Shown here: piece by piece, positions 1 through 58,787 of the stretch
How positions within the stretch are numbered: the stretch's first letter is position 1
Layout: the number at the start of each line of letters is the position of its first letter
Source of the DNA: an uncultured delta proteobacterium
Lineage (GTDB): Bacteria > Desulfobacterota > WTBG01 > CAIYCZ01 > CAIRTM01
NCBI GenBank assembly: GCA_963804955.1
Contig: CAWDSQ010000007.1
Location: forward strand, 128,001-192,000
Direction: 5' to 3'
DNA length: 64,000 bases
Notes under the pieces: model-generated
The model's input: the letters and a program-made list of their open reading frames with translations, nothing else
The model's database searches: none
What the model was told of the DNA's origin: nothing
Program-made: the position numbers and the translations under genes

Positions 1-68
1 CTTTGTCTTATCAATCGAAGGAAACAAGCATGCCGGTGGACCTTAAGCACCATAACTCAGCGACCGTT

Positions 69-750
69 TCACTTCATCTTGTCGCCAACCTCTGCGGCCC
101 AGGCATCAATTGTGTCCCAGTTGCGCCAGTCGGCCTTATTCTTGTCCGGCAGGCGCAGGATGAACCCCAGTATGCGCAGCACGATTTTCTCAAACAGCGA
201 ATACTTCTCTTTCGTAAAATCAATGGCTCCGCCAAAAAGCCCGATGGACACCGGGGAAATATCCGGGTACTTGCTCAGAATCGGGTCAATAAATGACTTT
301 TGCACCGCGGCGCGGGTTTCGGGCGTGTCTTGCAGACATGCTCGCGCCGACGATAAAGAGGGCCGTGGGCTTTGCGGCAAGCTGCTCATGATACTTTTCA
401 AGAAATGCTTGCGCGTCGGGCAGCCAGCTGAATTTATAGATCGCGCTTGCCACGATGAAGCCGTCGTAGCCATCCACATCGGTCACATCCCCGACCCACT
501 TCACATCAACCTTGAAGCCCATGTCGCACAGGTCATCGCCGATCTGTGCGGCCACCTCGGCGGTGGAGCCGTGGATGGTGTCATAGGCGATGAGGATTGT
601 TTTGGTGGCATTGTCCGGGCCGCATGACTGGGTAATACTGTCATTGTCCGTGCGGGGCTTAGCCTGGGCCGGATCGATGCACATACACACAGCGGCTATA
701 AGGGCTGTGCACGCACACAAAACACGAAGTGTTCTTGCAACAGTCTTCAT
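69..750 (-). CDS. Flavodoxin-domain protein (Flavodoxin_5/HemG-like) with N-terminal signal-like segment; frameshift near 330-350
   Basis: ORFs 286..804 and 69..479 join: ILIAYDTIHGSTAEVAAQIG (FMN loop), YDGFIVASAIY, FGGAIDF, DWRNWDTIDAWA; ATG at 750 preceded by AGGAGG. Confidence 0.8.
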
Positions 751-811
751 CACTGCCTCCTGAAAATTTTTACGGTAATCGGCGGCACAGACGTAAACCT
801 GCACCTGCCTA

Positions 812-960
812 TATTATTTGTCTCATATTTCTCTTCGCATTTTGTCATTCCGGCGCAGGCCGGAATCCAGACATTATGTAACTGGTTCCCGGCGTTCGCC
901 GGGAAGACGACAGAAGATGCCAAGGGTTCAGGTATGAATACTATTATGAGACCGTTAATA
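812..960. repeat. MITE/REP-like palindromic element
   Basis: Imperfect terminal IRs TATTAtttGTCTCATA (812-827) / TATGAGACcgtTAATA (945-960) enclosing GTCATTCCGGCGCAGGCCGGAATCCAG (844-870) and TTCCCGGCGTTCGCCGGGAA (886-905) hairpins. Confidence 0.6.
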
Positions 961-976
961 ACACGTCAATTTTCTG

Positions 977-1672
977 CTACATCCCGAAATGCATGTCCAT
1001 GGAGCGCTCAATTCCGCCCTTCTCACCGAATATCATCTTCCAGACTCCGACGCCCGGATCATGATCGATCAGGCTTTTCAGATAATCGTCAAACACCGCC
1101 ATGGTGCGCTTGAGCTCCTCGCCCGAAACAGGCTGCGCATTTTTGACCATATCGCAAAACAGGCGCAGGTACTCAAGAAAAATTTCGACAGCCCTGTCAT
1201 CAAGCTCCTCGGGTATTGATATCTGACAGGCGGCCTTTGAAAATACATCCTGCACCTTTCCGGTCTGCTTCTTTGTATATTTTGTGAGGTCGGGATACTT
1301 GTCGCGTATCTGGATCATTTGATCAAAAAGTGCCGAGTCGTCGTGATGCGTCTTGCCCGCGCGGTGGATATCAACAATCACCATTTTTTTGCCGCCCGTG
1401 CGCATCACCTCGCCGGCAAACACCGGCAGATCATACTGCACCCGGGGCCGCAGAAACATTGAGCGAACGGCAAAAAAAACCGGCAGCTGGGGCCGGATGA
1501 AAACTGCCCGCAGCAGCTTGTCCGATGAGAAAACCTCGCCGTCTATCTGCATGAGGCCCAGAGCACGCACAGGCCGCTCGGGCAGCGGATGTTTGAGCTG
1601 AACCGGCTTCAGATCAAAATATTTCCGTATCTCTTCCTGCACGATGGGATGAATATTCATAAGTGTGCTCAT
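977..1672 (-). CDS. Ferredoxin-dependent bilin reductase / red chlorophyll catabolite reductase fold protein
   Basis: 231 aa; motifs PRVQYDLPVFAGEV, IVDIH, DVFSK, FLEYL and C-terminal HDPGVGVWKMIFGEKGGIERSMDMHF resemble PcyA/PebA/PebB signatures (YxLPxFGxD; DP..G.L...FG.EW...Y....LF). Confidence 0.7.
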   Translation of the reverse strand: MSTLMNIHPIVQEEIRKYFDLKPVQLKHPLPERPVRALGLMQIDGEVFSSDKLLRAVFIRPQLPVFFAVRSMFLRPRVQYDLPVFAGEVMRTGGKKMVIVDIHRAGKTHHDDSALFDQMIQIRDKYPDLTKYTKKQTGKVQDVFSKAACQISIPEELDDRAVEIFLEYLRLFCDMVKNAQPVSGEELKRTMAVFDDYLKSLIDHDPGVGVWKMIFGEKGGIERSMDMHFGM

Positions 1673-1925
1673 GCCGTTCCGCCTTTCATGTTGTATGCAA
1701 TTATAGCCCTTTATGCTGCAGGCAAGCTCTCTATTTCAAAACACGTTAGAATTACAACTGTACCACAGTTTTAGTTTGGAAGGAAAAATATTATATCATT
1801 TTTGAATTATTACAGATAGCAACAATGAGGCATTTGAGACTTATCGGACTTGGCTTTACCGTAAAAAAACTCAAAAACAGAGTTGTTGAAGCATTTTCTT
1901 TTTACTCTGAACGGTTAATCTGTTC

Positions 1926-1961
1926 TATCATCTCGATCCGACACGGCGGATCGAGATGATA
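1926..1961. repeat. Perfect 15-bp inverted repeat
   Basis: TATCATCTCGATCCG-acacgg-CGGATCGAGATGATA. Confidence 0.85.
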
Positions 1962-2210
1962 ATTCGGCTTCAGTATCGGGATAAATACACTGGTTCGAAC
2001 GGATGCACACATGCAGAAAGACGCTTACCGGGAGCGGCGAGGAAGAAGGTTCATTGCAGGCGGGACGCAGCTCAAACAGCGAAGCCGGTGAGCAAAAATT
2101 TCCGTCGGAGCCTGATCGGACATGCAACAGGATTTTCTATCATAACACGTGGTAACTGTTCTCAGGCACAGAGTTCCAGAGCGTCTTCTGCACTCCCTGA
2201 TGGCTTATAG

Positions 2211-2236
2211 AAAGCGCTGCTTTAAAATGCAGCGCT
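2211..2236 (-). terminator. Probable intrinsic terminator of the ior-paa-liv operon
   Basis: AGCGCTGC/GCAGCGCT stem immediately after the paaK2 stop, short T run on minus strand. Confidence 0.45.
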
Positions 2237-2237
2237 C

Positions 2238-3541
2238 TTATAACAGACGCAAATCAAGGACCTTGCCTGATTTTTTCAGTTCATCTTCAAGCGTCTTGCG
2301 CTCAAGCAGCTTCACCTCTACGCGCATGCCCAGGCGATGCGAAAGCGTTGTAGCGCACGCGCTCGCGAAACAGCTCCTGATATTTTATCTCGTCGAAAGA
2401 TACGTTTTCCGGCACTTTGACACGCACCTCAAGGCTGTCGCGGTTGTGATCTCGCCTGGCAACAACCTGGTAGTGCGGCAAGCCGCCCTCTATTTCCATG
2501 AGAATATTTTCGATATACTGCGGCAGTATATTGATGCCCTTGACAATAAGGACATCATCGGTGCGCCCGGTGACGCGCTGCATGCGCACCATGATTCTGC
2601 CGCAGGCGCAGGGGCTGTAGTCAAGGCTGGTGACATCTCCCGTGCGGTACCGGATAAGGGGAAAAGCCTCCCTGGTGAGCGTGGTCAGAACCAGCTCTCC
2701 GGTCGCACCCGGCGGCAGAACCTCGCAGGTCTGGGGGTCGATAATTTCAGGCAGAAAATGATCTTCGGAAATATGCATGCCGGCGTGCTCGGAGCACTCT
2801 CCTGCGATGCCCGGCCCCATCAGCTCGCTGACGCCGTAGCTGTCGAATGTTTCAATAAACAGGCGCTGCTCGATTTCCCGGCGGGTGTTGTCAGACCAGA
2901 GCTCCGCACCCAGAAGGCCCTTTTTCAGCATCAGCGTTTTGGGATCAATGCCCAACGCTTCAAGTGCGTTCCGCCAGGATAAGCGCGTAGGACGGGGTTG
3001 TGGCAAGCACCGTGCTGCGATAATCCTGCATGATCCTGATCTGTTTGTCAGTCTGCTGGCTCGATGCCGGAATGACCGAGGCGCCGATGCGCTCGGCGCC
3101 ATGGTGCAGCCCGAAAGCGCCGGTAAAAAGGCCGTAGTGAAAGGATACCTGAATCACATCCTCATCGGTTACGCCTGCTGCCGTCAGAAACCGGGCAATG
3201 AGGTTGGCCCAGTTTTTGAGATCATTGCGCGTATAGCCGATAACTGTAGGCGTGTCGCTTGTTTCGGTCGTGGTGTGGATGCGTACAACCTCCCGCAGGG
3301 GCACGGCGAACATGCCGTAGGGATAATTCGCCTGCAGGTCATGCCTGGTCGTGAAAGGAAGATGCCTGAAATCGCTGTGGTTCCGGATATCCTCGGGCAC
3401 GATTTTTTTCTGGTCGAAAATGTGCCTGTAGAAGGAAACGCTTTTATACGCGCGGTTCAGACTCGACTGAAGCCGCTCGAGCTGCAGCTGCCCGAGCTCA
3501 TCGCGCTGACAGCACTCGAAATTTTTCTCCAGTATTGCCAT
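2238..3541 (-). CDS. paaK: Phenylacetate--CoA ligase paralog 2 (frameshifts near 2960 and 2330)
   Basis: ORFs 2960..3541 and 2302..3102; YGLFTGAFGLHHGAERIGA, YGVSELMGPG, FPLIRYRTGD, GRTDDVLIVKGINI; corrected end ...KSGKVLDLRLL*. Confidence 0.85.
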
Positions 3542-3617
3542 GCCCGTGCCCCTTTCCTGTGTATAGTTATTAGCGCATTATGGCGGCAAGCTCAACAGGT
3601 AATCAGCCTCTGTGCGG

Positions 3618-4355
3618 CTATTCCCATATCGGCTTCTTCTGCTTGCCCAGGTAGGCCCGCTGCACCTCGTGATTTTCCATGAGATACTGCGCAGAGCCTT
3701 CAAACATTATTTTGCCCGTCTCAATCACATACCCCCGGTCGGCATATTTCAGGGCCATTTTCGCGTTCTGCTCAACAAGAAAAACCGTCGTGGCGTGCTG
3801 GTCGCGCAGCCGGGCGATGGCCCTGAAGATTTCGTTTACCACCAGGGGCGCCAGCCCCATGGACGGCTCGTCAAGCAGCAGCAGGCGCGGAGCTGACATA
3901 AGCGCCCGGGCAATGGCCACCATCTGCTGTTCGCCGCCGCTGAGCGTGCCGGCAAGCTGCTCGCGGCGCTCACGGAGCCGGGGAAACATCTCATACATCA
4001 AAGCGATATCGGTATCTATCCGGTGCGCGGCCCCGGAACCCATGCGGCAGTAGGCGCCAAGCTTCAAATTGTCAAGCACGCTTAAGGGGCCGAAAATCTG
4101 ACGCCCCTCCGGAACCTGGGAGATGCCCTGCCGTACGATCCGATCTGCGCTCATGCCGGTAATATCTGTACCTCCGCAGCTGATGCGGCCCGAGCGCGGG
4201 GCAACAATGCCCGATATGGTATTGAGCAGCGTCGACTTTCCCGCGCCGTTGGCCCCGATAAGGGCGACAATCTCCCCCTGCCCGATGTGCAGGGAAACAT
4301 TCTTCAGCACATGTATATCGCCGTAAAAAGTATTTATGTTCTGTAGAACAAGCAT
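3618..4355 (-). CDS. livF: Branched-chain amino acid (HAAT) ABC transporter ATP-binding protein
   Basis: GANGAGKS Walker [21 protein letters not shown]. Confidence 0.92.
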   Translation of the reverse strand: MLVLQNINTFYGDIHVLKNVSLHIGQGEIVALIGANGAGKSTLLNTISGIVAPRSGRISCGGTDITGMSADRIVRQGISQVPEGRQIFGPLSVLDNLKLGAYCRMGSGAAHRIDTDIALMYEMFPRLRERREQLAGTLSGGEQQMVAIARALMSAPRLLLLDEPSMGLAPLVVNEIFRAIARLRDQHATTVFLVEQNAKMALKYADRGYVIETGKIMFEGSAQYLMENHEVQRAYLGKQKKPIWE

Positions 4356-4420
4356 GTATTTTTCTCATGCTGCAGTGTGAAACAACTAGTTCTATGCACC
4401 ATCAATCTCAGGAGCCTTTT

Positions 4421-5188
4421 TCATTCATCCCTGCCAAGATACACTTCAATGACCTGCGGGTTTGCCTGAATCTGCTCGGGTGTTCCCCATGCCAGCCGTG
4501 AGCCGAAATTGAGCACCAGTATCTCATCGGCTATGTCCATGACAAGCTCCATGTCATGCTCAACGATAATGACCGTTATCCCCCTGTCACGGATCGTGCC
4601 GATGAGCTGACCAAGGGCGCGCGTCTCCTGCGTGTTGAGCCCGGCGGCAGGCTCATCCAGCAGCATGACGGCCGGCTCGGCAGCCAGTGCCCGGCCGATT
4701 TCAAGAAGGCGCTGCGTTCCGATCGGCACGGATGCGGCAGGCTGATGGGCAAGATCGCCAAGGCCGACCATATCGAGATAGTACAGTGCTTTGTCGCGAA
4801 TCTGCTTCTCCTCACGCCGCATGCGGCCAAGGCTCAGGGCCGAAGCAATCATGCCGCAGCCCGTTTTTGTGTGGCGGCCGACCATCACATTTTCAAGCAC
4901 GGTCATGGTGCCGAAAACCTGGGCTGTCTGGAACGTTCGAGCAATGCCCAAACGGGCGATATCATGGCTTTTGAGACCGGAAATGGTCGAGCCGTTCAGC
5001 GCTATGGCCCCGGCTGTGGGAGGGGTTACGCCGGTCATGACATTGATGAGCGTGGTTTTGCCCGCTCCGTTGGGGCCGATGACCGCTGTAATGGAACCGC
5101 GCCGGACGCCGAAATCGACATCGTTCAGGGCGATAAGCCCTCCGAATTCCTTTCTGATTCCGGCTGCTTCAAGAATTGTCTCAGCCAC
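4421..5188 (-). CDS. livG: HAAT ABC transporter ATP-binding protein
   Basis: GPNGAGKTT, RTFQ, LLDEPAAGLN, VEHDM. Confidence 0.92.
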   Translation of the reverse strand: MAETILEAAGIRKEFGGLIALNDVDFGVRRGSITAVIGPNGAGKTTLINVMTGVTPPTAGAIALNGSTISGLKSHDIARLGIARTFQTAQVFGTMTVLENVMVGRHTKTGCGMIASALSLGRMRREEKQIRDKALYYLDMVGLGDLAHQPAASVPIGTQRLLEIGRALAAEPAVMLLDEPAAGLNTQETRALGQLIGTIRDRGITVIIVEHDMELVMDIADEILVLNFGSRLAWGTPEQIQANPQVIEVYLGRDE

Positions 5189-6137
5189 GGCCCCTCACTT
5201 TTTTGATTATTGTTTCATACAGGGTCTCAAAGCCCCTCATGAGGCCGCCCGGCAGAAACATGACTATCACAAGCAGTATGCTGCCGTAAATGACCAGCTC
5301 ATAGTCATGAAAGGCGCTGAGCACTTCAGGCAGCAGCGTTAAAAGCGCGGCTCCGAGCACTCCGCCCCATAAATGGCCCATGCCGCCCACGACAATCATG
5401 GTCAGCAATTTCACCGAAAACATGAGATCACTTGCCTGCGGGCTGATGAATGTTACGCTGTGGCCATAGAGAACCCCTGCAAGTGCGGCATACACGGCGC
5501 TGAGCACAAAAATCTGCACTTTCAGGGTTGTAACATTGATGCCCATGGCCGATGCAGCCATCTCGCTGCTGTGCAGACAGCGAAGCGCGCGCCCTGTTCG
5601 GGAATTAATGATATTGGCTGTGAGAATAAAAAGCAGGATAAATACTGCCCAGACAAGATAATAAAACTTAAAATCAGAGTCAAAGCTGAATCCGCCGATC
5701 TCGATGGACGGAATGCCGGCAAGGCCCGAAGGGCCGCCGGTAAAGCCGACGGAGGCGTTCAGGCAAATGAAAACAATTTCGCCGACGGCCAGGGTCGCCA
5801 CGGCAAGATAATGGCCCTTGAGGCGCAGGCAGGCCATGCCGATCACATAGGCAATAACAGTCGTAACGATGATGGCTGCTGCCAGTGCCGGCAAAAAATG
5901 AACATTGTATTTTGCTGTGAGAATCCCTGTGGTATATGCGCCCAGGGCATAAAAAGCGGCATGCCCAAGGGATATCTGGCCGGCATAGCCCATAAGCAGG
6001 TTCAGACCCATGGTAGCGATACTGAATATGCCGATAAAAACCAGGATTCCCAGGTAATAGGGGTCTTTGAGTGCAAGCGGCAGCACGGCAGCGGCGCAGC
6101 CGAATATCATGATCGGCAGGTGTCGCTTGAACGCCAT
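5181..6137 (-). CDS. livM: HAAT ABC transporter permease
   Basis: GLNLLMGYAGQISLGHAAF, YLAVATLA, multiple TM segments. Confidence 0.92.
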   Translation of the reverse strand: MAFKRHLPIMIFGCAAAVLPLALKDPYYLGILVFIGIFSIATMGLNLLMGYAGQISLGHAAFYALGAYTTGILTAKYNVHFLPALAAAIIVTTVIAYVIGMACLRLKGHYLAVATLAVGEIVFICLNASVGFTGGPSGLAGIPSIEIGGFSFDSDFKFYYLVWAVFILLFILTANIINSRTGRALRCLHSSEMAASAMGINVTTLKVQIFVLSAVYAALAGVLYGHSVTFISPQASDLMFSVKLLTMIVVGGMGHLWGGVLGAALLTLLPEVLSAFHDYELVIYGSILLVIVMFLPGGLMRGFETLYETIIKKVRGRG

Positions 6138-6138
6138 G

Positions 6139-7032
6139 CTAAAACTCCTTGAGCTTGGCCGCTTCGCGGCTGCCCATGAGACCGCTGGGGCGCACCAGCA
6201 GCACGATCAGCAGAACGCCCAGTGCTATGGCATCCTTGTACTCAGAGGATATAAAGCCGGCGCCGAAGGATTCAAGCACGCCGATGAGAAGCCCCGCAAT
6301 GACCGCGCCGGTGCCGTTGCCAAGGCCGCCGAGCACGGCAGCGCAGAAGCCCTTCAAACCCAGCAATGCCCCCCGGTCGAACTCCATAAGCACGATCGGG
6401 GTAAAGGCGATGCCGGCAGCAGCGCCGATGCCGGCGCTCATGGCAAAGGACAGCAGCACGATACGCTTCACATTAATGCCGACAAGGCTTGCAGCAACCG
6501 GGTTGACCGAGCAGGCGCGCATGGCCTTGCCGAGCATGGTGAAATTGAAAAAAAATGCCAGCAGCGCCACGACCGCGATAAGAATACCGATGATCCAGAG
6601 GGCCTGAGGTAGAATGGTAGCTCCAAGCAGATGCAGCGGCTCCTCGCCTGAGAAATGGGGCAGGCTGTAGGTCTGCTTGCCCCACAGGAGCATGGCTGCC
6701 CCTTTGAACATGATGGAGCCCGCAAGGGTTATGATGATCAGGATCAGAACCGGCGGTTTTTTAAGCGGGAAAATGGCAAGCCGTTCAAAAGCCGCGCCGA
6801 TGCAGGTGACAATCAAAACAGACAGAAGAAACCCGACAGGCAGCGGCAGATTGAACACTGTTGTGAGCCACACCATGACCATGCCGCCGAGCATGACAAA
6901 TTCGCCCTGGGCAAAGTTGATGATGCCGGTAGCATTATAGATAATATTGAACCCGAGCCCGACCATGGCATAGATGCTGCCGATGGTGAGGCCGGTGAAC
7001 AAAAACTGAATGATTTGACTCAGCAGTGACAT
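6139..7032 (-). CDS. livH: HAAT ABC transporter permease
   Basis: GSIYAMVGLGFNIIY..GIINFAQGEF, LKGFCAAVLGGLG. Confidence 0.92.
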   Translation of the reverse strand: MSLLSQIIQFLFTGLTIGSIYAMVGLGFNIIYNATGIINFAQGEFVMLGGMVMVWLTTVFNLPLPVGFLLSVLIVTCIGAAFERLAIFPLKKPPVLILIIITLAGSIMFKGAAMLLWGKQTYSLPHFSGEEPLHLLGATILPQALWIIGILIAVVALLAFFFNFTMLGKAMRACSVNPVAASLVGINVKRIVLLSFAMSAGIGAAAGIAFTPIVLMEFDRGALLGLKGFCAAVLGGLGNGTGAVIAGLLIGVLESFGAGFISSEYKDAIALGVLLIVLLVRPSGLMGSREAAKLKEF

Positions 7033-7049
7033 GGCACCAGACAAGAAAA

Positions 7050-7089
7050 GAGGCTAAACCGTCGGCAGAAACTCCAGTGGTTTAGCCTC
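7050..7089 (-). terminator. Intra-operon hairpin/terminator after livK
   Basis: 11-bp stem GAGGCTAAACC/GGTTTAGCCTC followed by TTTTCTT on minus strand. Confidence 0.6.
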
Positions 7090-7112
7090 AGCATTACGAA
7101 ATTTAAGCGTTG

Positions 7113-8243
7113 TTATTTGGCCACCACGATTTTGCCGTTTTTCACGGTCAGCATTTCAAAAGAAGTTTTGTCGAGTCCGCAGTGGTCCTCGGCTGAATAG
7201 TTGAAGATGCCGGCAGTGCCCACAAATCCCTTTTTATTCTCAATAAAGTCACGAATTTTGGCGCTGTCGGGACCAACAGCCTTGAGCGCTTCTACAACAA
7301 GCATATAGGCATCATAGCCATGACCGCCGAAGGTGCTCACATCGGTCTTGAATTTTTCCTCATAGTCTTTTTTGTACTTTGCAAGCAGGGCCTTTTGCGG
7401 ATTCGTGTCCGGCAGGCTGTCAACAGCAAGCAGTCGTCCGCAGGGAAACAGCACGCCCTCTGCTGCATCGCCGGCATCCTGGGCATATTTGATATTGCCG
7501 AAACCGTGGCTTTGGAACAGGGGCATGGTCATGCCCAGCTGTTTTTTGTTTTTCATGACCGTGGTTTGAGCAGGGATGATCTCCCAGTTAATGATGGCCT
7601 GAGCATCGGTGCCCTTTATTTTTGTCAGCTGGGCCGTCATGTCCGTATCCTTGGGCCCATAGGTCTCATCAGCAACAATGGTGATGCCGTATTCGGGGGC
7701 AAGCTTTTTGAGCTGCTCGCGGCCAGCCGTGCCGAAACCCGTCGTTCCCGACATGATGGCGGCCTTGGTAAGCTTCATTTCCTTCATTTTTTCGTAAATG
7801 CGGCGCACAGCATCCGCATCACTCTGCGGAGTTTTGAAAACCCATTTCTTGACAGGCTTCACAATGTCTTCTGCGGCAGCGCAGGAGACCAGCGGAATTT
7901 GCGCCTTTTCAACAATGGGAATGACCGCCATGGTGTCGCCGCTGCGCGTCGGGCCGATGATGGCTGCGACCTTGTCGTTAATCAGCTTCTTGACCTTCAT
8001 GACCGCCTTTGCCTCATCACCCTCATTGTCTTCAATGATCAGCTCGATCGGGTGACCATTGATGCCGCCGGCGGCATTGATCTGCTCGGTGAGCATAAGG
8101 GCTGTGTTGCGCTCGGGTTCTCCCAGCAGCGCGGCAGGGCCGGAAATGGCAAATACGGCACCGATTTTATACGGCTCAGCAGCCTGAACGGTCGCTGCGC
8201 ATACCATCAGACAGAACGCTCCCAAAAGCACAAATCTTCTCAT
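7113..8243 (-). CDS. livK: HAAT ABC transporter periplasmic substrate-binding protein
   Basis: Signal peptide; PYKIGAVFAISGPAALLGEPE, INAAGGING, YDA motif. Confidence 0.9.
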   Translation of the reverse strand: MRRFVLLGAFCLMVCAATVQAAEPYKIGAVFAISGPAALLGEPERNTALMLTEQINAAGGINGHPIELIIEDNEGDEAKAVMKVKKLINDKVAAIIGPTRSGDTMAVIPIVEKAQIPLVSCAAAEDIVKPVKKWVFKTPQSDADAVRRIYEKMKEMKLTKAAIMSGTTGFGTAGREQLKKLAPEYGITIVADETYGPKDTDMTAQLTKIKGTDAQAIINWEIIPAQTTVMKNKKQLGMTMPLFQSHGFGNIKYAQDAGDAAEGVLFPCGRLLAVDSLPDTNPQKALLAKYKKDYEEKFKTDVSTFGGHGYDAYMLVVEALKAVGPDSAKIRDFIENKKGFVGTAGIFNYSAEDHCGLDKTSFEMLTVKNGKIVVAK

Positions 8244-8323: not shown

Positions 8324-8755
8324 TTACAGATTGTACACCTTTGCACCTTCAAGAATGGTGATGCCCGCATCCGAGAGCGCCTTGATTGCCCGGTCATTTC
8401 CGTCAAAGCGAAAGATGATGATCGCGTTGTCCGAGCTGCGTTCGATGAAGGCGTACATATACTCAACATTGACGCTCTGCTTTTCAAGCAGGGCAAGGAT
8501 GCCCGCCAGCCCTCCGGGGGTATCAGGCACCTCAACGGCGACCACTTCGGTTTTGCTCACCGTGAAGTCATTATCCTTGAGCGCTTTCAGGGCTTTTTCA
8601 TTGTCGTTGACAATGACGCGCAGTATGCCGAAATCGGACGTATCGGCGATGGAAAGAGCCCTGATGTTAACGCCGGCGCTGCCCAGCACGCGCATCACCT
8701 CGGCAAGGCGCCCCGACTTGTTTTCCAGAAAGACCGATATCTGTTCTACCTTCAT
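8324..8755 (-). CDS. Tandem ACT-domain protein
   Basis: [14 protein letters not shown]...[33 protein letters not shown]. Confidence 0.9.
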
Positions 8756-8768
8756 AATGCCTCCTTAA

Positions 8769-8846
8769 AATTGAGGAATTGATGAATTGAGGAATCATGG
8801 AAATTGCATGCGGCAATTCCTTAATTCCCAAATTCCGGAATCATCT
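8769..8846. repeat. Palindromic array of 8-bp AATT-led units
   Basis: AATTGAGG AATTGATG AATTGAGG AATCATGG, central AATTGC..GCAATT, then AATTCCTT AATTCCCA AATTCCGG AATCATCT. Confidence 0.7.
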
Positions 8847-10151
8847 TTACAATTTCCGCTTATCGATCACGCGCTGGGCCTTGCCCTCGCTTCGCTGTAT
8901 CGTCTTTGGCTCAACAAGGGTGCATTTGCAGGACACACCAAACATTTCCTTAATGTCGTGCACAACGCGCTTCTCGATCACCTCAAGCTGCTTCACCTCG
9001 TCTGAAAAGATTCTCTCGTTGACCTCAACCTGAACCTCTATGGTATCCAGGTTGTTCTTGCGGTCGACGATGAGCTGATAGTGCGGCTCCAGGCCCTCGA
9101 TCTGCATGAGCGCGCTTTCGATCTGCGAGGGAAAGACATTGACGCCGCGAATGATCAGCATATCGTCGGTTCTGCCCGTAATGCGCTCCATCCTCACAAA
9201 TGTGCGGCCGCAGATGCACAGCTCAGGGTTCAGGCATGATATGTCGCGGGTTCGGTACCGTATAACCGGGAAGGCTTCCTTGGTGATAGAGGTAAAAACG
9301 AGCTCGCCTTTTTCACCGTAGGGCAGCGGCTCGCCAGTTTCGGGATCGATAATTTCCGGGATAAAGTGGTCTTCAAAAACATGCAGGCCTTTTTTAGCCT
9401 CGATGCATTCACTGGAGACACCGGGCCCGATGACCTCGGTCAGCCCGAAAATATCAACGGCGTCTATATTGAATATTTTTTCAATCTGCTCCCGCATCTT
9501 CTCCGACCACGGCTCGGCGCCGAAACAGCCTACCCTGATTTTGAAATCCTTCGCCGGGTCAATGCCCATATCACGGGCGACATCGGCAAGGTGCAGCGCG
9601 TAGGACGGCGTGCAGGTAATGGCCGTGGGGCCGAAGTCTTTCATGATCATGATCTGGCGCTTTGTATTGCCTCCCGAAATGGGAATGACCGAGGCGCCGA
9701 TCCGCTCAGCGCCGTAGTGCGCCCCCAGCCCTCCCGTAAAAAGGCCGTAGCCATAGGAGTTGTGAACAATGTCGCCCTTATGAATACCCGCAGCGGTCAG
9801 GGTCCGCGCCATGAGTTCCGCCCAGGTGTCAATATCCCGCCGGGTATAGCCTACCACGATGGGCTTACCCGTGGTGCCCGATGATGCATGCACGCGCACC
9901 ACGCTTTCCATGGGCACGCTGAACAGGCCGAAGGGATAATTGTCGCGCAGGTCGGTCTTGACGGTAAAGGGCAGCAGCCGCATATCCTTGAGCGACTTGA
10001 TATGCGCAGGCTTCAGACCGGTTTCATCGAATTTTTTCTTGTAAAACGGAACGGTAGCGTACACGCGGTCTACCGTGGCCTTAAGCCGCTTGAGCTGCAG
10101 GCTCTCCAGCGCCTCCCGGGGCAGGGTTTCAAATTCTTCGTTCCAAATCAT
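8847..10151 (-). CDS. paaK: Phenylacetate--CoA ligase
   Basis: Intact 434 aa; [11 protein letters not shown]-loop, [27 protein letters not shown]. Confidence 0.95.
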
Positions 10152-10170
10152 AGGTCACAACCTCCTGTAT

Positions 10171-10750
10171 TTAGTGTTGCTCTCTCCCAAGCGCAAAGGC
10201 TTTTAAGTTAAGATCAACCAGCTTCGGCGGCAGCATTGCTCGTATAGCCTCATGCCATATATGTCTCCGCCACATCAAAAAACCGCGACAGCGCGCCAAC
10301 AAAGGCCACATTCAGGGCCTTGGCATTGCCCGCCTGTTTTGCAAGCCCCAGAGCATCCACCAGCTCGAAACGGCGATAGTGTGCGGAAAGCAGCCCGGGG
10401 ATAGTGCCGGGGTACTCATCCTTGCCGAGCGTCACCGACGGCGGAAGTATTTTCTGGTTATTGACAAGCACGACGGCATCAGGGCTGAGGGTGTTTAGAT
10501 AGCGCATTGTTTCCAGCAATTCAAATGAAAAAAGAATGTCAACTTCACCGTCCTTTATGAGAGGCGAATAGACTTTTTTCCCGAAACGCACATGGGTGGT
10601 CACGGAACCGCCGCGCTGGGCCATGCCGTGCACTTCGCTTTTCTTGACATCGAAGCCGGCTTTCATCATGGCCTCGGAAACGATCTCGCTGGCGAGAATA
10701 ACGCCCTGACCGCCAACGCCTGCCATCAATATATTGGTAACCTTATCCAT
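10171..10750 (-). CDS. iorB: Indolepyruvate:ferredoxin oxidoreductase beta subunit (frameshift near 10250)
   Basis: GVGGQGVILAS, EVHGMAQRGGSV; corrected end ...LNLKAFALGREQH*. Confidence 0.9.
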
Positions 10751-10758
10751 ATCAGGTC

Positions 10759-12517
10759 TCACTTTCCCTCGCTAATGGCTTCTTTTTTGCAAATCTGTGC
10801 GCAAACCGTGCAGCCCGTGCACAGCGTCTGGTCGATAGAGGCCTTGCCCTTGTCGCCGTCATTGCGCCACTCAAGGGCCGGGCAGCCGATCTGCAGGCAG
10901 GCCCTGCAGCCGATGCAGGCAGCCTCGTCTACAGCATGGGGCTTACGGGTCGCTTTAAACTCCCGGCGGTGCAGCACGCAGGGGGCCTCTGACAGGATAA
11001 CCGAAGCCTCGGGCCGGTTCACTTCTTCCTGAATAACGCTCTTGACCTGAGCCAGATCATAGGGGTTCACTTTTCTGATATGCTCGATGCCCAGCGCCCG
11101 GCAGAGCACTTCATAATTGACCTGCCTGGCGGGCTTTCCCATAAGGGTAAATCCCGTGCCAGGATGCTCCTGCCGGCCGGTCATGGCGGTAATGCGGTTA
11201 TCGAGAATAATAACCGTGCAGGCGCCCTGGTTATACGCGATATCAAGCAGGCCGGTAATGCCCGAGTGCAGAAAGGTCGAATCGCCGATGACAGCCACGG
11301 CCTTGCCGAGATTATTTTCTCCCAAAGCCTTGTCGATGCCCATGGCGCAGCTGACGCTTGCACCCATGCAGATGCAGGTGTCCATGGCGCTTATTGGCGG
11401 CAGGGCGCCCAAGGGTATAGCAGCCGATATCGCCCGACACAAACAGCTTCATGGTCTTCAGTGTATGAAAAATGCCGCGGTGCGGGCAGCCCGGACACAT
11501 ATTGGGCGGCCGGGCGGGGATATAATCAAGCAGGGGCTTTTCTTCTTTTTTCAGCCTGATGCCGGCAATGCCCGCATCGGCTGTTGCGGGGTTGAATTCG
11601 CCGCAGAGGGGAAAGACCTCTTTGCCGGTCACGTCAATGCCCAGGGCCTTTATCTGTTCTTCATAAAAAGGATCAAGCTCCTCGATCACGTAGAGCTTTT
11701 TCACCTTCCCGGCAAACTCCTTTATTTTCTTCGCCGGAAGCGGATGGACCATGGAGAGTTTTAAAAACGATTTTGCCGGAAAGCTTTCCCGTGCATACTG
11801 ATATGATGTGCCGCTGGCTATAATGCCGATATCGGTTTCCTGCAGAATAATTTCATTGCCGGCAAAGGAGTCGGCAAATTCAGCCAGTTTTCTGGTTCGC
11901 TCCTCGACAAGGGGATGGCGCATGCGGGCATTGCGCGGCAGCATGACGAATTTCTCAAACTGGTGCTGCAGCTCTTTGGGCGCTTCGCGCTTTTCCGGCT
12001 CGACAAGCTCCACAATAGATTTGGCATGAGATATACGCGTCGTTGAGCGCACAAATACGGGCGTATCAAAACGCTCGCTGAGCTCGAAGGCAAGCTTTAT
12101 GAAATCTTTTGCCTCCTGGCTGTCTGCGGGCTCAAGCATCGGAATTTTGGAAAATTTGGCATAATTGCGGTTGTCCTGCTCATTCTGTGAGCTGTGCATT
12201 TCCGGGTCATCGGCAGTGATAATCACCAGGCCGCCGCGCACGCCGGTATAGGAGGCGGTAAACAGGGGGTCGGCAGCCACATTGACCCCCACATGCTTCA
12301 TGCAGGCAAGCGCCCTGCCTCCTGCAATGGCGGCGCCGAGTGCCACCTCAAGAGCCACTTTCTCATTGGGAGACCACTCGGCGTATATCTCCTTATACTG
12401 GACGATATTTTCAAGAATCTCGGTGCTGGGCGTACCCGGGTAGGCCGCTGCCACCTTCACCCCCGCTTCGTAGGCGCCCCGCGCTATTGCCTCATTGCCT
12501 GACAGTAAAACCTTCAT
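10759..12517 (-). CDS. iorA: Indolepyruvate:ferredoxin oxidoreductase alpha subunit (frameshift near 11400)
   Basis: LSGNEAIARGA, YPGTPSTE, MKHVGVNVAAD, CPGCPHR, GDIGCYTL, GDSTFLHSG, two C-terminal 4Fe-4S motifs. Confidence 0.93.
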
Positions 12518-28032: not shown

Positions 28033-29481
28033 TTACTTTTCCTGACCGCGTGTCCGCACCTGATAGCGAACGGTGACCATATCCTGCGCGTCCGCAGCAA
28101 ATTTTGCCGACGCAGGCTGCGCAATCACGCGCGCCTTGAGTTCGCCGCTTTGCGTTATGCCCGTCCAGCGGCACCTTTTCAGTATAGAGAGCGACATCTT
28201 TTCCATGGCATGCTTGCCGCTGCTAATATCAATTTTGGCGGGCTCAACATCGGCTGTGACCATGATCAGATTCTCGGGAAGTTTTCCTGCCCAATCGACC
28301 TGCACCGGAACTGATTTTTCTTCAAGCTCATCAAGGGTGATCTCAAGTGCAGCCGGCTCGACCTTTTTTAGATAGACCCCCGGCGGCAGGGCAACCTGCC
28401 CCGGTGAAATGGACAGCCTGTTGCGCCCGACCGTTGCTTCCCCAAGGTCAATCTGCACGCGCACCTGTTCAGGCTGCACCGATTTCAGCAGCGTACCGGA
28501 ACCGCTCAGCTGCAGATGAACGGTTGATGCTGAAGCGTCGATAATATCGATAGGCCTGATTGCGATTGGTAAACTCAAGAGGAACATCGATGCCCATAAG
28601 GGTATCGCCGCTGCGGGTAAAGATGAACCAGACAATGGCCACCGTAACAAGCGATGCCAGTGCGGCAAAGCGGAACTCGCGTCTGCCGCTTCGCTGGGGG
28701 TGCCTGTGTTCATCAAGCCCCATCAGATGATCCTCAAGCAGCTCTGCAAGTCGCTCCCAGCCCGCTACGCGCTCGACCTGATCGCCTTTTGCAACCGAAA
28801 CCTCGCCCCGCTCCTCCGATACGACGACCACCATGGCATCGGTCTGCTCGGCAAGACCTGCTGCGGCGCGGTGCCGCGTGCCGAAAAATGAAGGCAAATC
28901 CGAGCGGCTCGACAGCGGCAGCACGCCGCCAACCGTGGTGATCCGGTCCCCCACGATGATGGCGGCGCCGTCATGGACAGGATTATCATCCCAGAAAATA
29001 CTCATCCAGCATCTCCCGCGAAACCAGCCCCTGCCAGGCAATGCCGTTGCGGATATAATCGGCCAGTTCGTCTTTTGATTGCAGCACGATGATCGCGCCT
29101 GTTTTTTTGCGTGCAAGCTCGAATGCGGCATCGGCAACAATTCCTATCGTGCCGCGCATTTCGCGCTGGGGAGATCCCCAGAAAAAAGCCCGCAGGTTGC
29201 GCACCTGGAGCACCGAGCGGATTTCGTTGCGGAATACCACGATGATGATGAGTGCCGCAGCTGCGGTGATGCCCTGAATGGCCCAGCTCGTAATAATGAG
29301 GCCGAGAAATTCGGCAATGCTCTTGGCAAGCAGCAGCAGGGAAATACCCGACAAGCACGCGCCAGACTGCCGTGCCGCGGAACAGGACATACAGGCGGTA
29401 CAGAATATAGCTGTTGAGCAGAATGTCGACAATATCCTGCCACCTGATGCTTTTTAAAAAGACTGCGAGAGACTCCGCCAT
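28033..29481 (-). CDS. Membrane diadenylate cyclase (DisA_N/CdaA-type) fused to YbbR domains (several frameshifts)
   Basis: N-terminal TMs, VFRNEIR, TGAIIV, PVHDGA and GTRHRAA catalytic motifs, VSEERG; then a TM and YbbR-like VPLEF..N / LPPGV..VEP repeats. Confidence 0.85.
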
Positions 29482-29486
29482 TGCTT

Positions 29487-29879
29487 TCAATCCGTCACGC
29501 TGAACCGCACGACATCCAGCCGCTTGTTGTCGGCCCCTAGAATTTCAACCCGCCAGGGACCTTTGTCGGTTTCGCGAAGCTGCATGGTGGAATAGATCTT
29601 CCAGCTCGGCGGCTCCAGCACGAGCCTGCGCTTGGCCACAAGCCTGTCGCGATGATACCAGACATGAAAAACCGTGGCCTTCACCGGCACGAACTCAAAA
29701 TAGCAGAAACAGAAAATCTTGCCCTCGGACGCGGAAAAAACAACGGCCCTGTTTTCAGGCCCGGCTTCGGAAATCTGCTCGCACATATAGGCTGCAGTAA
29801 GCCGCAGGCCGTCCTTGGAAAAAGCGGCCGCCGGAAGGCAGACAAGAAAAAATACTGCAAGGATAATAATTTTTTTCAT
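29487..29879 (-). CDS. DUF2914-like secreted protein
   Basis: Signal peptide; IFCF, HVWYH, W.IYS, GPWRVEI. Confidence 0.75.
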   Translation of the reverse strand: MKKIIILAVFFLVCLPAAAFSKDGLRLTAAYMCEQISEAGPENRAVVFSASEGKIFCFCYFEFVPVKATVFHVWYHRDRLVAKRRLVLEPPSWKIYSTMQLRETDKGPWRVEILGADNKRLDVVRFSVTD

Positions 29880-29970: not shown

Positions 29971-30811
29971 TCAACCCTTGACCGCTGTCGATGTGCGCAG
30001 CTCGTTGCCGAACCAGACCACCCGCTGCGGAAAGGGTATTTCCATGCCCTCCCGCTCCAAGCTCTGTCTTGATGCGCCACAAAAGTTCCTTCTTTGCGCC
30101 GTACCACTCGCCCACTGGCGCCCAGATGCGCACGGCGATATTGACGCTGTTGTCTCCCAGCGTCTCCACGAACACCACCGGCTCCGGGTATTTCAGGGCA
30201 AACGGATATTCATCGATCACGCGATTGATGACAGCAATGGCCTGGTCGGCGTCATCGCTGTAGCGGATGCCAACGGTATAGTCGATGCGGCGCACGATAT
30301 GGTTGACATAGTTTACGATGGGCGCCGTAAAAATTTTTTCATTGGGAATGCGCACAAACAGCCCGTCAAAGGTGCGCAGCGTGGTGGAGATTATGCGAAT
30401 GTCCTCGACAAAGCCCGCAAAGTCGTTGATGCTCACCTGGTCGCCGATTTTTATGGGCCGCTCGATCATAAGGAAAATACCCGAGATGAGATTTCCGACG
30501 ATGCTCTGGCTGGCAAAGCCGATGACAACGCCGGCGATGCCGCCGGCGACCATAAGGCCGGAAAATTTAAACCCGAGCTCGCCCAGGGCATAGATCACGG
30601 CCACGGTCATGATGGTCCAGTTGATGAGCTTGACGGCAATCTCGAGATTGTCTTTGCGCAGCTTGTCCTTAAATGCCCGGCGCATATAGGCCGACACCAG
30701 CCGCGCCGCAATAAACGCAGCCGCCACCACCGCCACAGCCACCAGCGCATCGGCAACCGACACCTTTTTATACAGGTGCATGTCAAGCAGTTTCAGTATC
30801 CACGCGTTCAT
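29971..30811 (-). CDS. mscS: Small-conductance mechanosensitive channel (frameshift near 30050)
   Basis: GFASQSIVGNLISG, ERPIKIGD, IPNE, LGDNSVN; corrected end EIPFPQRVVW. Confidence 0.9.
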
Positions 30812-31520
30812 AGGCCGTCCGTCATTGTAAATTTCGGAAAAAGCACAACAAGCTTGCGCGCCGTATACAGCTCCAGGGATTTGCTCATGTGCTGCTCCAG
30901 GGGCATGTCCCTGAAATCGGTATTGGCCGTTGTCGCACCCGTCACTTCCATATCGGCCCGCATGGCAACCAGCCCGTCGCTATAGTACAGCTTCATGCCA
31001 TAGGCGCTGAATACAGCCTTGGTTACTTCAACCCACGACCCGGTAGCGTTTACAATCTTCAGCTCCATGACCCCCTCGCGCAGCCTGTCCGGCAGAGGCT
31101 GCAGCGGTTTCCACGGGGGTGCTCCAGTAGCGGCACAGCATGCCGTTGCGCGGATCGCCGTACAGCGTGTACTTCTGCCGCGCCAGGGTGAATATATCAA
31201 GGGTTTCGATCTCGCCATTGTCCTTGCAGAAAAACGCCGATCTCAACCGGAAATGTAACAAACACGGTGCTCGTTGATTTGGGCGCAAGAGCAGCCGGTC
31301 GCTGAAAATCAAGATACAGGTACGGGGTCAGGTCGCGAGGCAGGTTGAGGGGCTCGACCGGATTGATGACAATGCTGCCCCGGCCACCTCCCAGCAGCAG
31401 CTTTTCAGCCTTCTCCTCACCAAGCTGCCGGCGGTACACAATGGCATCGCCTCGCCGCTCGATGCTGAGGCTGATGCCTTCGGACTCAATATTTAAAGGG
31501 ATATCGTAGGTGCCGTACAT
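30808..31520 (-). CDS. DUF432-family protein (frameshifted)
   Basis: YRR, INPVEPLNLP, FPVEIGV, KYTLYG.P..G..CRYW, MKLYY. Confidence 0.75.
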
Positions 31521-31691
31521 GAAAAAATAATCCGTAATTTATCTTTCTTGCCAGATTAACACACTTTTCCGCACCGTTCACCATATTTCCTCGCCGCCTC
31601 ATGATTCGCGTCTTTTTCAAGGCGATTGAGAAGCCGGTCATAGTCAAAATTCCATGCAACCACCTGAAACTCTTGAAACGGCACCATATTC

Positions 31692-46787: not shown

Positions 46788-47518
<731 letters not shown>

Positions 47519-56058: not shown

Positions 56059-56086
56059 ACACTCACAATGTAGAGCAGGGTTTGTG

Positions 56087-58787
56087 ATGTCTACGCAGCA
56101 GCACATTACCATCGACGGCAATCAGTACGGCTTTCAAAGCGGAGAGACGATTTTCCAGGTGGCGGTGCGCAACGGCATTAAGATCCCTTTCCTGTGCTAT
56201 CTGAAAGGCACGACGCCCACAGGCGCCTGCCGCATGTGCCTGGTCGAGGTCGAGGGGGCCCGCAGCCTTGTGGCATCATGCGCAACACCGGCTTCGCCGG
56301 GCATGGTCGTCAAGAGCGCATCCGAGCGGGTACTGAAATTCCGCAGGATGAATCTGCAGCTGCTGCTCTCCTCGGGGCATCACTACTGCGTCACCTGCGA
56401 GGCTGACGGCGACTGCCGGCTGCAGAGCCTTGCCTATGAATACAAGATCGACACGATCGATTACCGGGAAGCGCCGCAGAAGCACCCCGTGGAGGTCAAC
56501 ACGCTCATCACCCGGGACTTTTCCCGCTGCATCATGTGCGGCTGCTGCGTGCAGGCGTGCAATGAGGTGCAGGTCAACCAGGCCATATCCTGCGGCTACC
56601 GGGGCGTTGCTTCAAAGATCGTCGCCACGGGCGACAGGGCCTATGCTGATTCGGACTGCGTCTTTTGCGGCGAGTGCGTCCGCGTCTGCCCGGTGGGGGC
56701 GCTCGTCGAGACCCAGAGCCGCTTCAAGGGCAAAGTCCGGGATCTGCAGAAAGTGAAGACCACCTGCGGCTACTGCGGCGTGGGCTGCCAGCTGTATCTG
56801 CACGTGAAGGACGGCAGGGTCGTGAAGGTGACCGGCTCTGACACCGATGCGCCCAACTACGGCAGCCTCTGCGTGAAGGGCCGCTTTGCCTATGACTTCA
56901 TTCATGACGAGACAGCGCCTGACCACCCCCCTGATCAGGGAGAACGGGTCGCTCCGGGAAGCCTCATGGGATGAAGCGCTCGGGCTTGTGGCCTCACGGC
57001 TTGCATCGATCAAAAAAGAAAGCGGGCCTGATGCCATCGGCGTGCTGGCAAGCGCACGCATCACCAATGAAGACAACTATGTGATACAGAAGTTTGCCCG
57101 GGCCGCCATCGGCACCAACAATGTCGATCACTGCGCGCGGCTTTGACACTCCTCCACCGTGGCCGGTCTGGCCGCAGCGTTTGGCAGTGGCGCAATGACA
57201 AACCCGATAGCCGACATCAGCCTCTCCGATGTCATCCTCATAACAGGCTCAAACACCACCGAGAACCATCCGGTCCTTTCCTCCTATGTGAAGCGGGCCG
57301 TGACGCGGGAAGGCAAGAAGCTGATCGTCATCGACCCGCGCAGGATACCCATAACGCGCTACGCCACACTGTGGCTGCGGCAGAACCTCGGGCACCGATG
57401 TGGCCTGGATCAACGGCCTGATGCAGGTGATCATCAGCGAAGGCCTGTATGACAGGGATTTTGTTGCAACGCGCACCACGGGCTTTGACGCTCTGAAAAA
57501 GGCGGTTGAAAAATACACCCCGGCCTATACGGAAAAGATAACCGGCATACCGGCCGATATTCTCGCAGCAGCCGCCCGTATGTATGCCGGCGGGCAAGCC
57601 CTCCTCGATACTCTATGCCATGGGCATAACCCAGCACATTACCGGAACCGACAATGTGAAGTCGCTTGCCAACCTTGCCATGCTCTGCGGCAACCTGGGC
57701 AAGGCCGGCGGGGGCGTAAACCCCCTGCGCGGCCAGAACAATGTGCAGGGCTGCTGCGACATGGGCTGCCTGCCCAATGTGTTTCCCGGCTACCAGAAGG
57801 TGGACAGCCCTGAGGTGCGGGAAAAGTTTGCCAAAGCCTGGGGCGTTAAAGAGCTTTCTGCAAAGCCGGGCCTGACCGCCACGGAAATGATGGACAAAGC
57901 GCACAGTGGAGAGGTGAAGGCCCTCTATATCATCGGTGAAAATCCCATGGTCTCCGACCCTGACCTTTCCCATGCCAGAAAAAGCCTCCAGAAGCTCGAC
58001 CTGCTTGTGGTGCAGGACATTTTTATGACCGAGACCGCGCAGCTTGCCGATGTCGTGCTGCCGTCGGCATCATTTGCCGAGAAAGACGGCACCTTCACCA
58101 ACACGGAGCGCAAGGTGCAGCTGGTGCGCAAGGCTGTCGATGCGCCCGGCAGCGCACGGGAAGACTGGCGGATAGTGGCCGGCCTTGCCTCGGCCATGGG
58201 CTATGACCTGGGCTGCGGCTCGGCTGAAAAGATCATGGCCGAGATCACGCGCCCTTACCCCCTCCTATGGCGGCATCACGTGCGACAGGCTGCAGGCCGG
58301 CGGCCTGACCTGGCCCTGCCCGAACCCCGAACATCCGGGCACCCCGCGACTGCATATCGATCAGTTTACCCATGGGCTGGGCGTGTTCCATGCCATCGAG
58401 TACCTGCCACCTGCCGAGGTTGCGGACGCTGAGTACCCGGTGTACCTCACCACGGGGCGGGTGCTCTACCAGTATCACACGGGCACGATGACCATGAAGT
58501 CGCCGGGCGTGCACGAGCGCGAGCCCGCGTGCTTTGTAGAGATTGCAGGCCGGGACGCCCAAGACTGGGGCATCAGCGACAATGAGAAGATAAAAATTAT
58601 TTCGCGGCGCGGCTCAATCGAAGCCTCGGCGCGCATTTCGGACCAGGCTGTGCAGGGAACCATTTTCATCCCGTTCCATTATGCCCGGGCTGCGGTGAAT
58701 ACCCTCACCAACGGCGCCCTTGACCCAACGGCTAAAATTCCGGAGTTCAAGGTCTGCGCCGTGAGAGTTGAAAAGAAACACGATTGA
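56087..58787 (+). CDS. fdhA: Selenocysteine-containing Mo/W formate dehydrogenase alpha subunit with N-terminal NuoG-like Fe-S domains (frameshifted)
   Basis: GACRMC, H..C..C, two ferredoxin motifs, [53 protein letters not shown]. Confidence 0.92.
57144..57175 (+). promoter_or_regulatory. In-frame UGA (Sec) plus bacterial SECIS hairpin
   Basis: TGA 57144-57146; stem GTGGCC/GGCCGC with GGTCT loop starting 12 nt downstream, resembling the E. coli fdhF SECIS. Confidence 0.88.

Follow-up and report, generated by a model that had tools for sequence, protein, structure and literature searches.

What does an enzyme with the fold of the ferredoxin-dependent bilin reductases (FDBRs) do in a sulfate-reducer-like bacterium that looks anaerobic? 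Phycobilisomes and phytochromes owe their chromophores to FDBRs, whose origin is an active question, with the roots placed in heterotrophic bacteria. The question is raised here by a gene at 977..1672, on the minus strand of a 64-kb stretch of DNA from an uncultured delta proteobacterium. This whole stretch is called the window in what follows. A preliminary description, made from the letters alone, had taken the gene for a homolog of the FDBRs and of red chlorophyll catabolite reductase (RCCR). Our analysis of sequences and predicted structures points to a putative flavodoxin-fed tetrapyrrole reductase in a deep, uncharacterised FDBR clade, and we give this reading an even chance of being right.

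Reading frame, family and fold

977..1672, minus strand: FDBR-family gene; 231 aa, ATG start, intact; predicted proton donors Glu88 and Asp205

The ORF listing and its translation gave a single ATG-started frame of 231 residues at this place, with GAAAGGCGGAACGGC ahead of the ATG as a plausible ribosome-binding stretch. Every motif named in the preliminary description was indeed present in the translation: YDLPVFAGE at residues 80-88, VDIH at 100-103, FS at 144-145 and the HDPG-type C-terminal motif as HDPGVGVWKMIFGEKGGIERSMDMHF at residues 204-229. The frame is unbroken while many other genes of the window are split. The protein matched the Pfam family PF05996 (Fe_bilin_red) with E=8e-17 and 62.1 bits, compared to a curated cut-off of 31, and the match spanned residues 11-218, corresponding to profile positions 4-216 of 228. 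A word-indexed search returned 187 homologous proteins at E<=0.001 among 332 candidates. Between the window and five related loci, dN/dS of the FDBR-like gene was 0.065-0.144 (7 of the 15 pairs, those with unsaturated dS); the gene is under purifying selection. Because of the Pfam match, the 187 homologs and the low dN/dS, 977..1672 is no chance ORF.

Among the matches listed (at least 120), all carried PF05996. Their identity to the window protein was 52-96% and their lengths ranged from 227 to 262 aa, nearly all falling at 227-235 and one at 262. The few named members among them were all annotated as 'hypothetical protein' and came from metagenome-assembled genomes (MAGs) of Deltaproteobacteria/Thermodesulfobacteriota. 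An exhaustive HMMER search of 1.84 billion cluster representatives yielded 73 proteins at E<=0.001, of which 35 reached 1e-10 or lower and 14 reached 1e-30 or lower; with so few matches, the family is compact and far from all else. A search of the ESM Atlas returned Fe_bilin_red clusters only. Tblastn against phages gave one match at chance level (E=7) and against plasmids cyanobacterial pebA/pebB alone (8e-5 to 4e-2), so that the family was not seen on known phages or plasmids. The 2331-aa repeat protein P0150 matched query residues 30-60 in 13 stretches, apparently an artefact of composition or repeats, and was set aside.

A family profile built from 23 members, down to 27% identity, was searched against PDB chains. 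It matched cryptophyte PEBB (6qwq) at 5.2e-11 and tomato HY2 (6kmd) at 1.9e-8, followed by Nostoc PcyA at 1.1e-6 and PebA at 4.2e-6. The AlphaFold2 model of the window protein, made on the 23-member alignment, had a mean pLDDT of 90.4 and a pTM of 0.88. When compared to the PDB with Foldseek, ranks 1-24 were all FDBR chains (TM 0.64-0.80), with values of 0.80 for HY2 (6kmd), 0.79 for PcyA (2g18), 0.70-0.76 for PebB (6qx6) and 0.75 for PebA (2x9o). Coproporphyrinogen oxidase (CPO) appeared at ranks 46-49 (E about 1e-3 to 2e-3, TM 0.55-0.57). Together with the Fe_bilin_red match, this model bears out the FDBR fold proposed in the preliminary description.

The same description had leaned towards RCCR, an enzyme that uses a Glu/Asp pair, and here our data did not follow it. 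The Pfam family RCC_reductase (PF06405) did not match the window protein even at E<=10, the family profile found no RCCR chain in the PDB at E<=1, and in Foldseek RCCR occupied ranks 26-43, below every FDBR type, with TM 0.56-0.71 against 0.75-0.80. Membership in RCCR was rejected on these grounds. From the Pfam, profile and Foldseek outcomes, that is from sequence and a predicted structure, the window protein is best classed as a member of the FDBR family and not as an RCCR. Membership in PcyA, PebA or PebB was rejected as well: the NCBIfam PcyA equivalog gave 21.8 bits (cut-off 206) and the PebA/PebB equivalogs 24-33 bits (cut-offs 263-327), and the position in the tree and, for PebB/HY2, an approximately unbiased (AU) test spoke against it, as described below.

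Active-site positions and place in the tree

Active-site positions were read from an L-INS-i alignment of 61 sequences, in which PebS of phage P-SSM2 served as the ruler, with the numbering of Table 2 of PMC13446030. The position of PcyA/PebS Asp105 was Glu in all 19 family rows (Glu88 in the window protein), so the carboxylate of the central strand is kept in the family, as Glu rather than Asp. The His88/Asn88 position carried Ser in 17 and Thr in 2 of the 19 rows (Ser71), and the PcyA Glu76 position was hydrophobic (Ile59 in the window protein). Two claims of the preliminary description, that the catalytic Asp of PcyA (in FGCD) is replaced by Glu and that the His position is lost, are thus confirmed in all 19 family rows. 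The PcyA triad Glu76/His88/Asp105 is not conserved and reads Ile59/Ser71/Glu88 in the window protein. The HMMER alignment to Nostoc PcyA (2g18) agreed, with FGCD facing FAsE and H facing s. At the position of PebS Asp206 / HY2 Asp256, Asp was found in 18 of the 19 rows (Asp205, in the HDPG turn). Over the 23-sequence family alignment, E88, R33, R36, R55, R223, G39, G45, P83 and G93 were invariant, and S71, K95, D101, H204, D205 and P206 were conserved to at least 90%.

These features bring the family close to PebB, HY2 and PebS, with which it shares the fold, the carboxylates at the same two positions and, for PEBB and HY2, the best profile matches. There are also differences: the beta-strand residue is Asp in PebB, HY2 and PebS but Glu in the family, and the His88 position has Asn in the former and Ser in the latter. 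A second comparison concerned the FDBR homologs of non-photosynthetic bacteria already published as pre-PcyA (Rockwell et al. 2023, PMC10151467; Frascogna et al. 2026, PMC13446030). Like these, and pre-1 especially, the family consists of FDBR-family proteins in non-photosynthetic bacteria. In PMC13446030, pre-1 is described with Glu in place of Asp105, either Thr or Asn in place of His88 and, typically, Ser where HY2 has Asp256. The family has the Glu in common with pre-1, as well as the lack of His88 and of a Glu76 equivalent; it agrees in part at the His88 position (Ser/Thr as compared to Thr/Asn), but differs at the HY2 Asp256 position, where Asp takes the place of the Ser typical of pre-1. 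Pre-1 FDBRs with Glu at the Asp105 position are reported to convert biliverdin to 3E-phytochromobilin, and their E91Q variant to be changed in product stereochemistry only (PMC13446030). Since these biliverdin reducers carry Glu there, the Glu by itself is no pointer to RCCR chemistry.

The unrooted tree was computed with IQ-TREE (LG+C20+F+G4) from 234 columns and 61 rows. The rows comprised 19 family members chosen for spread, 2 sequences of the P0177 type, 12 of a 'group X', 2 singletons, 7 in a group that includes two Ca. Schekmanbacteria proteins, 7 eukaryote-like PEBA or PEBB/HY2-like representatives and 12 annotated references from cyanobacterial plasmids or cyanophages (3 PebA, 3 PebB, 2 PebS, 4 PcyA). 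Left out were fragments below about 190 aa, P0146 and P0150, and RCCR, CPO and pre-PcyA sequences. The family formed one clade (support 97/92), with the P0177 group as its sister (97/89) and group X as sister of both (100/98). A branch with support 96/82 divided the family, P0177, group X, the singletons and the Schekmanbacteria group from the PcyA, PebA/PebS and PebB/HY2-like rows. An AU test rejected the alternative of one clade formed by the family and the PebB/HY2-like rows (p=0.0055); this grouping was named after the tree had been made and was prompted by the profile matches in the PDB. Judged from the sequences, the family is a deep, uncharacterised clade of Deltaproteobacteria/Thermodesulfobacteriota MAGs outside PcyA, PebA/PebS and PebB/HY2; the FDBR-like groups of metagenomic origin that surround it are likewise uncharacterised. 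Because Rockwell et al. placed Schekmanbacteria sequences with the RCCR outgroup (PMC10151467), the family may even branch outside the crown FDBR clade.

Two other sets of sequences in the tree deserve a description of their own. Group X (P0155, P0173, P0174, P0176, P0179, P0196, P0204 and others) consists of metagenomic FDBR-like proteins of about 260-270 aa, several of them with an N-terminal hydrophobic helix, and no NCBI-sourced member was seen in it. As a rule, its members carry Asp in place of Asp105, Thr in place of His88 and GGPAV where the family has the HDPG turn. The FDBR-like proteins of Ca. Schekmanbacteria are, like the family, uncharacterised and lie on the same side of the 96/82 branch. 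They differ by Asp at the Asp105 position, an NDPGxGP motif, an identity of about 26% to the window protein and a clade of their own. The locus tags of two of them, P0212 and P0214, are consecutive (D6734_00330 and D6734_00335), both genes being located on a single contig of 25 kb from a Ca. Schekmanbacteria MAG. The prefix of these tags recurs in Table S1 of PMC13193486, where D6734_12105 is a query labelled 'Unknown'.

Neighbouring genes and host

69..804, minus strand: flavodoxin-fold gene, downstream of the FDBR-like gene and on the same strand; Pfam Flavodoxin_5, 55.8 bits
805..976, minus strand: spacer between the flavodoxin and FDBR-like genes; 172 nt, one promoter-like match at 969..940
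1673..2301, minus strand: AT-rich non-coding stretch upstream of the FDBR-like gene; 629 nt, separating it from a phenylacetate-CoA-ligase-like gene

The surroundings of the gene were compared between the window and the five related loci from public MAGs (L001-L005). A flavodoxin-fold gene was found 3' of the FDBR-like gene, on the same strand, in all six; it follows directly in L001-L004, and in L005 one ORF lies between. The flavodoxins of L004 and L005 are short and ordinary and 82% identical to each other, but share only 20% identity (E=0.03) with the HemG-like type of L001-L003 and the window, so that two different flavodoxin types occupy the same place. A gene for an aldo-keto reductase (AKR) fused to a 4Fe-4S dicluster domain was adjacent in all three loci with enough DNA (L001, L002, L005). 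It stands after the flavodoxin gene in L001 and L002 and divergently upstream in L005, the L001 and L005 proteins being 35% identical; the DNA of the window and of L003, and that of L004 on its upstream side, does not extend far enough to show it.

The best NCBIfam match of the L001 and L002 flavodoxins was the HemG protoporphyrinogen dehydrogenase model, over positions 3-172 of 177, with 42 bits for a cut-off of 142. The model 'flavodoxin family protein BilS' matched only weakly among the neighbour flavodoxins. The AlphaFold2 model of the flavodoxin, based on an alignment of three sequences, was poor (pLDDT 58.3). The ORF between the FDBR-like and flavodoxin genes at 2433..3200 (plus strand) of L005 occurs in that locus only; it encodes 255 aa and had no Pfam or NCBIfam match at E<=0.001 save a chance-level one to Moricin.

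An Rfam scan of window positions 1..3000 gave no family and two sub-threshold matches to microRNA models (E about 0.65), which ruled out a known RNA, such as a riboswitch, upstream. Scanned for promoters and terminators, window positions 1..2400 showed no excess over shuffled sequence (2 vs 2.2; 3 vs 2.7), and no consensus promoter was called on the minus strand of 1673..2301.

The domain scan of the window covered 72 of the 97 ORFs of at least 150 aa (25 overlapping shadow ORFs being omitted) and all 218 stop-to-stop frames of 80-149 codons. No heme oxygenase (HO), phytochrome, globin or V4R domain was detected in these frames, in line with the earlier remark that the window holds neither HO nor phytochrome. 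Nor were HO, BBAG/globin, V4R or phytochrome found beside the FDBR-like gene in the scanned ORFs of L001-L005. The gene clusters of pre-1 and pre-3 are described as containing HO, the globin BBAG, a pair of V4R proteins and an Fe-S protein, and pre-2 genes as neighbouring a globin and a B12-binding protein (PMC10151467, PMC13446030). In place of these partners, the FDBR-like genes of our loci are accompanied by flavodoxin and AKR/4Fe-4S genes. Among the 73 matches of the exhaustive search, drawn from a library without names or accessions, no protein was traceable to pre-PcyA.

Genes for a 2-oxoacid:ferredoxin oxidoreductase, MvhD/FlpD, a NuoF-like subunit, formate dehydrogenase and a multiheme cytochrome were found in the window. 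The preliminary description had called the host strictly anaerobic: the gene content of these 64 kb indeed suggests an anaerobe, but is no proof of one. Beyond the 629-nt stretch, the FDBR-like gene is preceded upstream by genes for a phenylacetate-CoA ligase (split), an ABC transporter of branched-chain amino acids and an indolepyruvate:ferredoxin oxidoreductase.

The regions 8327..12517 and 2302..8243, both on the minus strand, hold an indolepyruvate/2-oxoacid:ferredoxin oxidoreductase, two phenylacetate-CoA-ligase-like genes, an ACT-domain protein and a Liv-type ABC transporter. This cluster, 629 nt away from the FDBR-like gene, is a typical module of anaerobic aromatic amino-acid fermentation. 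Broken genes were seen at 2302..3541, 28036..29490 and 30811..31538 (minus strand) and at 46840..47302 and 56084..58787 (plus strand). They include phenylacetate-CoA ligase, DAC/YbbR, DUF432 (in three pieces), an ABC ATPase and formate dehydrogenase alpha (in at least 5 pieces), and the breakage of so many genes resembles the effect of indel-type errors in the assembly, or else that of a decaying genome.

Proposed function, rival explanations and meaning

In the reading that we prefer, a tetrapyrrole, most likely a linear one, would be bound between the central beta-sheet and the C-terminal helices and would be reduced in sequential one-electron/one-proton steps. The proton donors would be Glu88, which is invariant and lies on strand beta4, and the almost invariant Asp205 of the HDPG turn; the A-ring reducers PebS, PebB and HY2 use these two positions as well. 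As electron donor we propose the flavodoxin-fold protein encoded directly downstream rather than a plant-type ferredoxin; this flavodoxin could in turn be recharged by the adjacent AKR/4Fe-4S protein. In vitro, flavodoxin can substitute for ferredoxin with PcyA.

With no HO seen close by and a host of anaerobic appearance, the enzyme probably acts on a scavenged bilin or on a linear tetrapyrrole formed without O2, and not on biliverdin produced next door. Candidates may be biliverdin from a distant HO, scavenged bilins and linear tetrapyrroles from oxygen-independent heme breakdown. In the HmuF/FldH and BilR/BilS systems, the latter acting on bilirubin, a protein of flavodoxin or Old Yellow Enzyme type is itself the reductase and no FDBR-fold protein takes part, which distinguishes them from the system proposed here. 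Both nevertheless share with it the anaerobic hosts and a reductive handling of linear tetrapyrroles with flavodoxin-type proteins. The anaerobilin reductases HmuF/FldH, of the flavodoxin superfamily, provide a precedent for such handling in anaerobes (PMC10404700), and the name of the weakly matched NCBIfam model 'flavodoxin family protein BilS' hints at another. A more far-reaching proposal would see in the family a flavodoxin-driven FDBR lineage of strict anaerobes, free of any O2-dependent upstream step and reducing linear tetrapyrroles of anaerobilin type, made without O2, or scavenged bilins via NAD(P)H, the AKR/4Fe-4S protein and flavodoxin; we regard this as unlikely, if conceivable.

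Several observations weigh against a flavodoxin-fed reductase. The window-type flavodoxin has an N-terminal hydrophobic segment resembling a signal or an anchor, and cleavage of this segment followed by export would put the flavodoxin out of reach of a cytoplasmic enzyme. Compared to L001 and L003, its gene at 69..804 contains a one-base insertion near 333 that splits it into two frames, so the gene may be either a pseudogene or hit by a sequencing error; since many genes of the window are also split, the latter may be the case. The conserved gene order was observed in no more than six loci from two sub-lineages (86-93% and 72% identity to the window protein). The neighbour flavodoxins gave no sequence match to FldH/HmuF chains in the PDB and were rejected as their relatives. 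A search of 902 candidates for longer fused forms, such as an FDBR-flavodoxin, gave none at E<=0.001, although this negative carries little weight. Finally, an HO could be encoded elsewhere in the genome, as only 64 kb of it were seen.

Such a distant HO is the core of a different explanation, an ordinary FDBR of bilin biosynthesis, for which biliverdin would be made under micro-oxic conditions and whose product would feed a bilin-binding sensor or a globin, as in the pre-PcyA systems. Both acid positions are kept, Glu at the Asp105 position is typical of the biliverdin-reducing pre-1 proteins (PMC13446030), and some pre-PcyA genomes are described as encoding HO apart from the FDBR (PMC13446030, PMC10151467); the visible part of the genome is also small (64 kb). 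We consider such an enzyme rather improbable all the same, as none of the expected partners was seen in the scanned frames of the window or beside the gene in L001-L005, redox proteins are what is conserved next to it, the gene content of the window speaks for an anaerobe, and Asp occupies the HY2 Asp256 position in which pre-1 typically has Ser (PMC13446030). The HemG-like flavodoxin, with its full-length match, would rather evoke an enzyme for a cyclic tetrapyrrole, a porphyrinogen or porphyrin, in anaerobic heme or siroheme-related metabolism. The fold is common to FDBRs and CPO, as the Foldseek ranks of the latter illustrate, and pre-3 variants are reported to bind porphyrins (PMC13446030). 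We find this quite doubtful, however: the HemG match is far under its cut-off, L004 and L005 have a short ordinary flavodoxin instead, the CPO structures are much poorer matches than the FDBRs, and the CPO active site is placed on the opposite face of the sheet (PMC13446030).

The protein might also have kept the fold and lost the reductase activity, acting as a non-catalytic binder or carrier of tetrapyrroles. The loss of the PcyA triad would agree with this, as would the low activity of the pre-1 protein POZ53557 in co-expression assays (PMC13446030). The conservation of both acid positions down to 27% identity, the Glu being invariant, and the constant linkage to genes for redox partners make it an improbable explanation. 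An RCCR-type reductase of environmental chlorophyll breakdown products, finally, could invoke the Foldseek probability of 1.00 with which RCCR structures were matched and the Glu/Asp pair of RCCR, but the failure of RCC_reductase to match at E<=10 and of the family profile to match any RCCR chain at E<=1, and Foldseek ranks that come after every FDBR type, render it highly improbable.

The proposed flavodoxin-fed tetrapyrrole reductase has to be set against what is published on the FDBR family. The preliminary description spoke of a possibly undescribed reductase, and this is true in so far as the family is uncharacterised. Only part of it holds, since the pre-PcyA homologs of heterotrophs are published and the 2026 trees in PMC13193486 mention two further FDBR clades with no characterised member and uncertain placement. 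From the descriptions of the pre-PcyA types (PMC10151467, PMC13446030), our clade is unlike all of them in residue pattern and gene context. We see in it a real, uncharacterised variant of a known enzyme family, which may coincide with one of the two clades of 2026. Full-text searches of the literature gave no bilin reductases of Desulfobacterota and, for sulfate reducers, nothing beyond a general review; the terms Fe_bilin_red and PF05996 led to unrelated papers only, and RCCR with Glu154/Asp291 returned nothing.

Should the enzyme prove to reduce biliverdin in the ordinary way, with a distant HO as its source, it would do no more than extend a known family by one lineage. The stakes are different for an oxygen-independent lineage. 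According to a published proposal, all enzymes of the FDBR fold ultimately depend on oxygen (PMC10151467), the ties running via HO, via pheophorbide oxygenase or through CPO itself. A lineage independent of O2 would be an exception to this proposal and a candidate for the early 'archae-FDBR' that is being sought (PMC13446030). All in all, a conserved FDBR clade in anaerobic Thermodesulfobacteriota offers a clonable test of this fold in oxygen-free tetrapyrrole metabolism.

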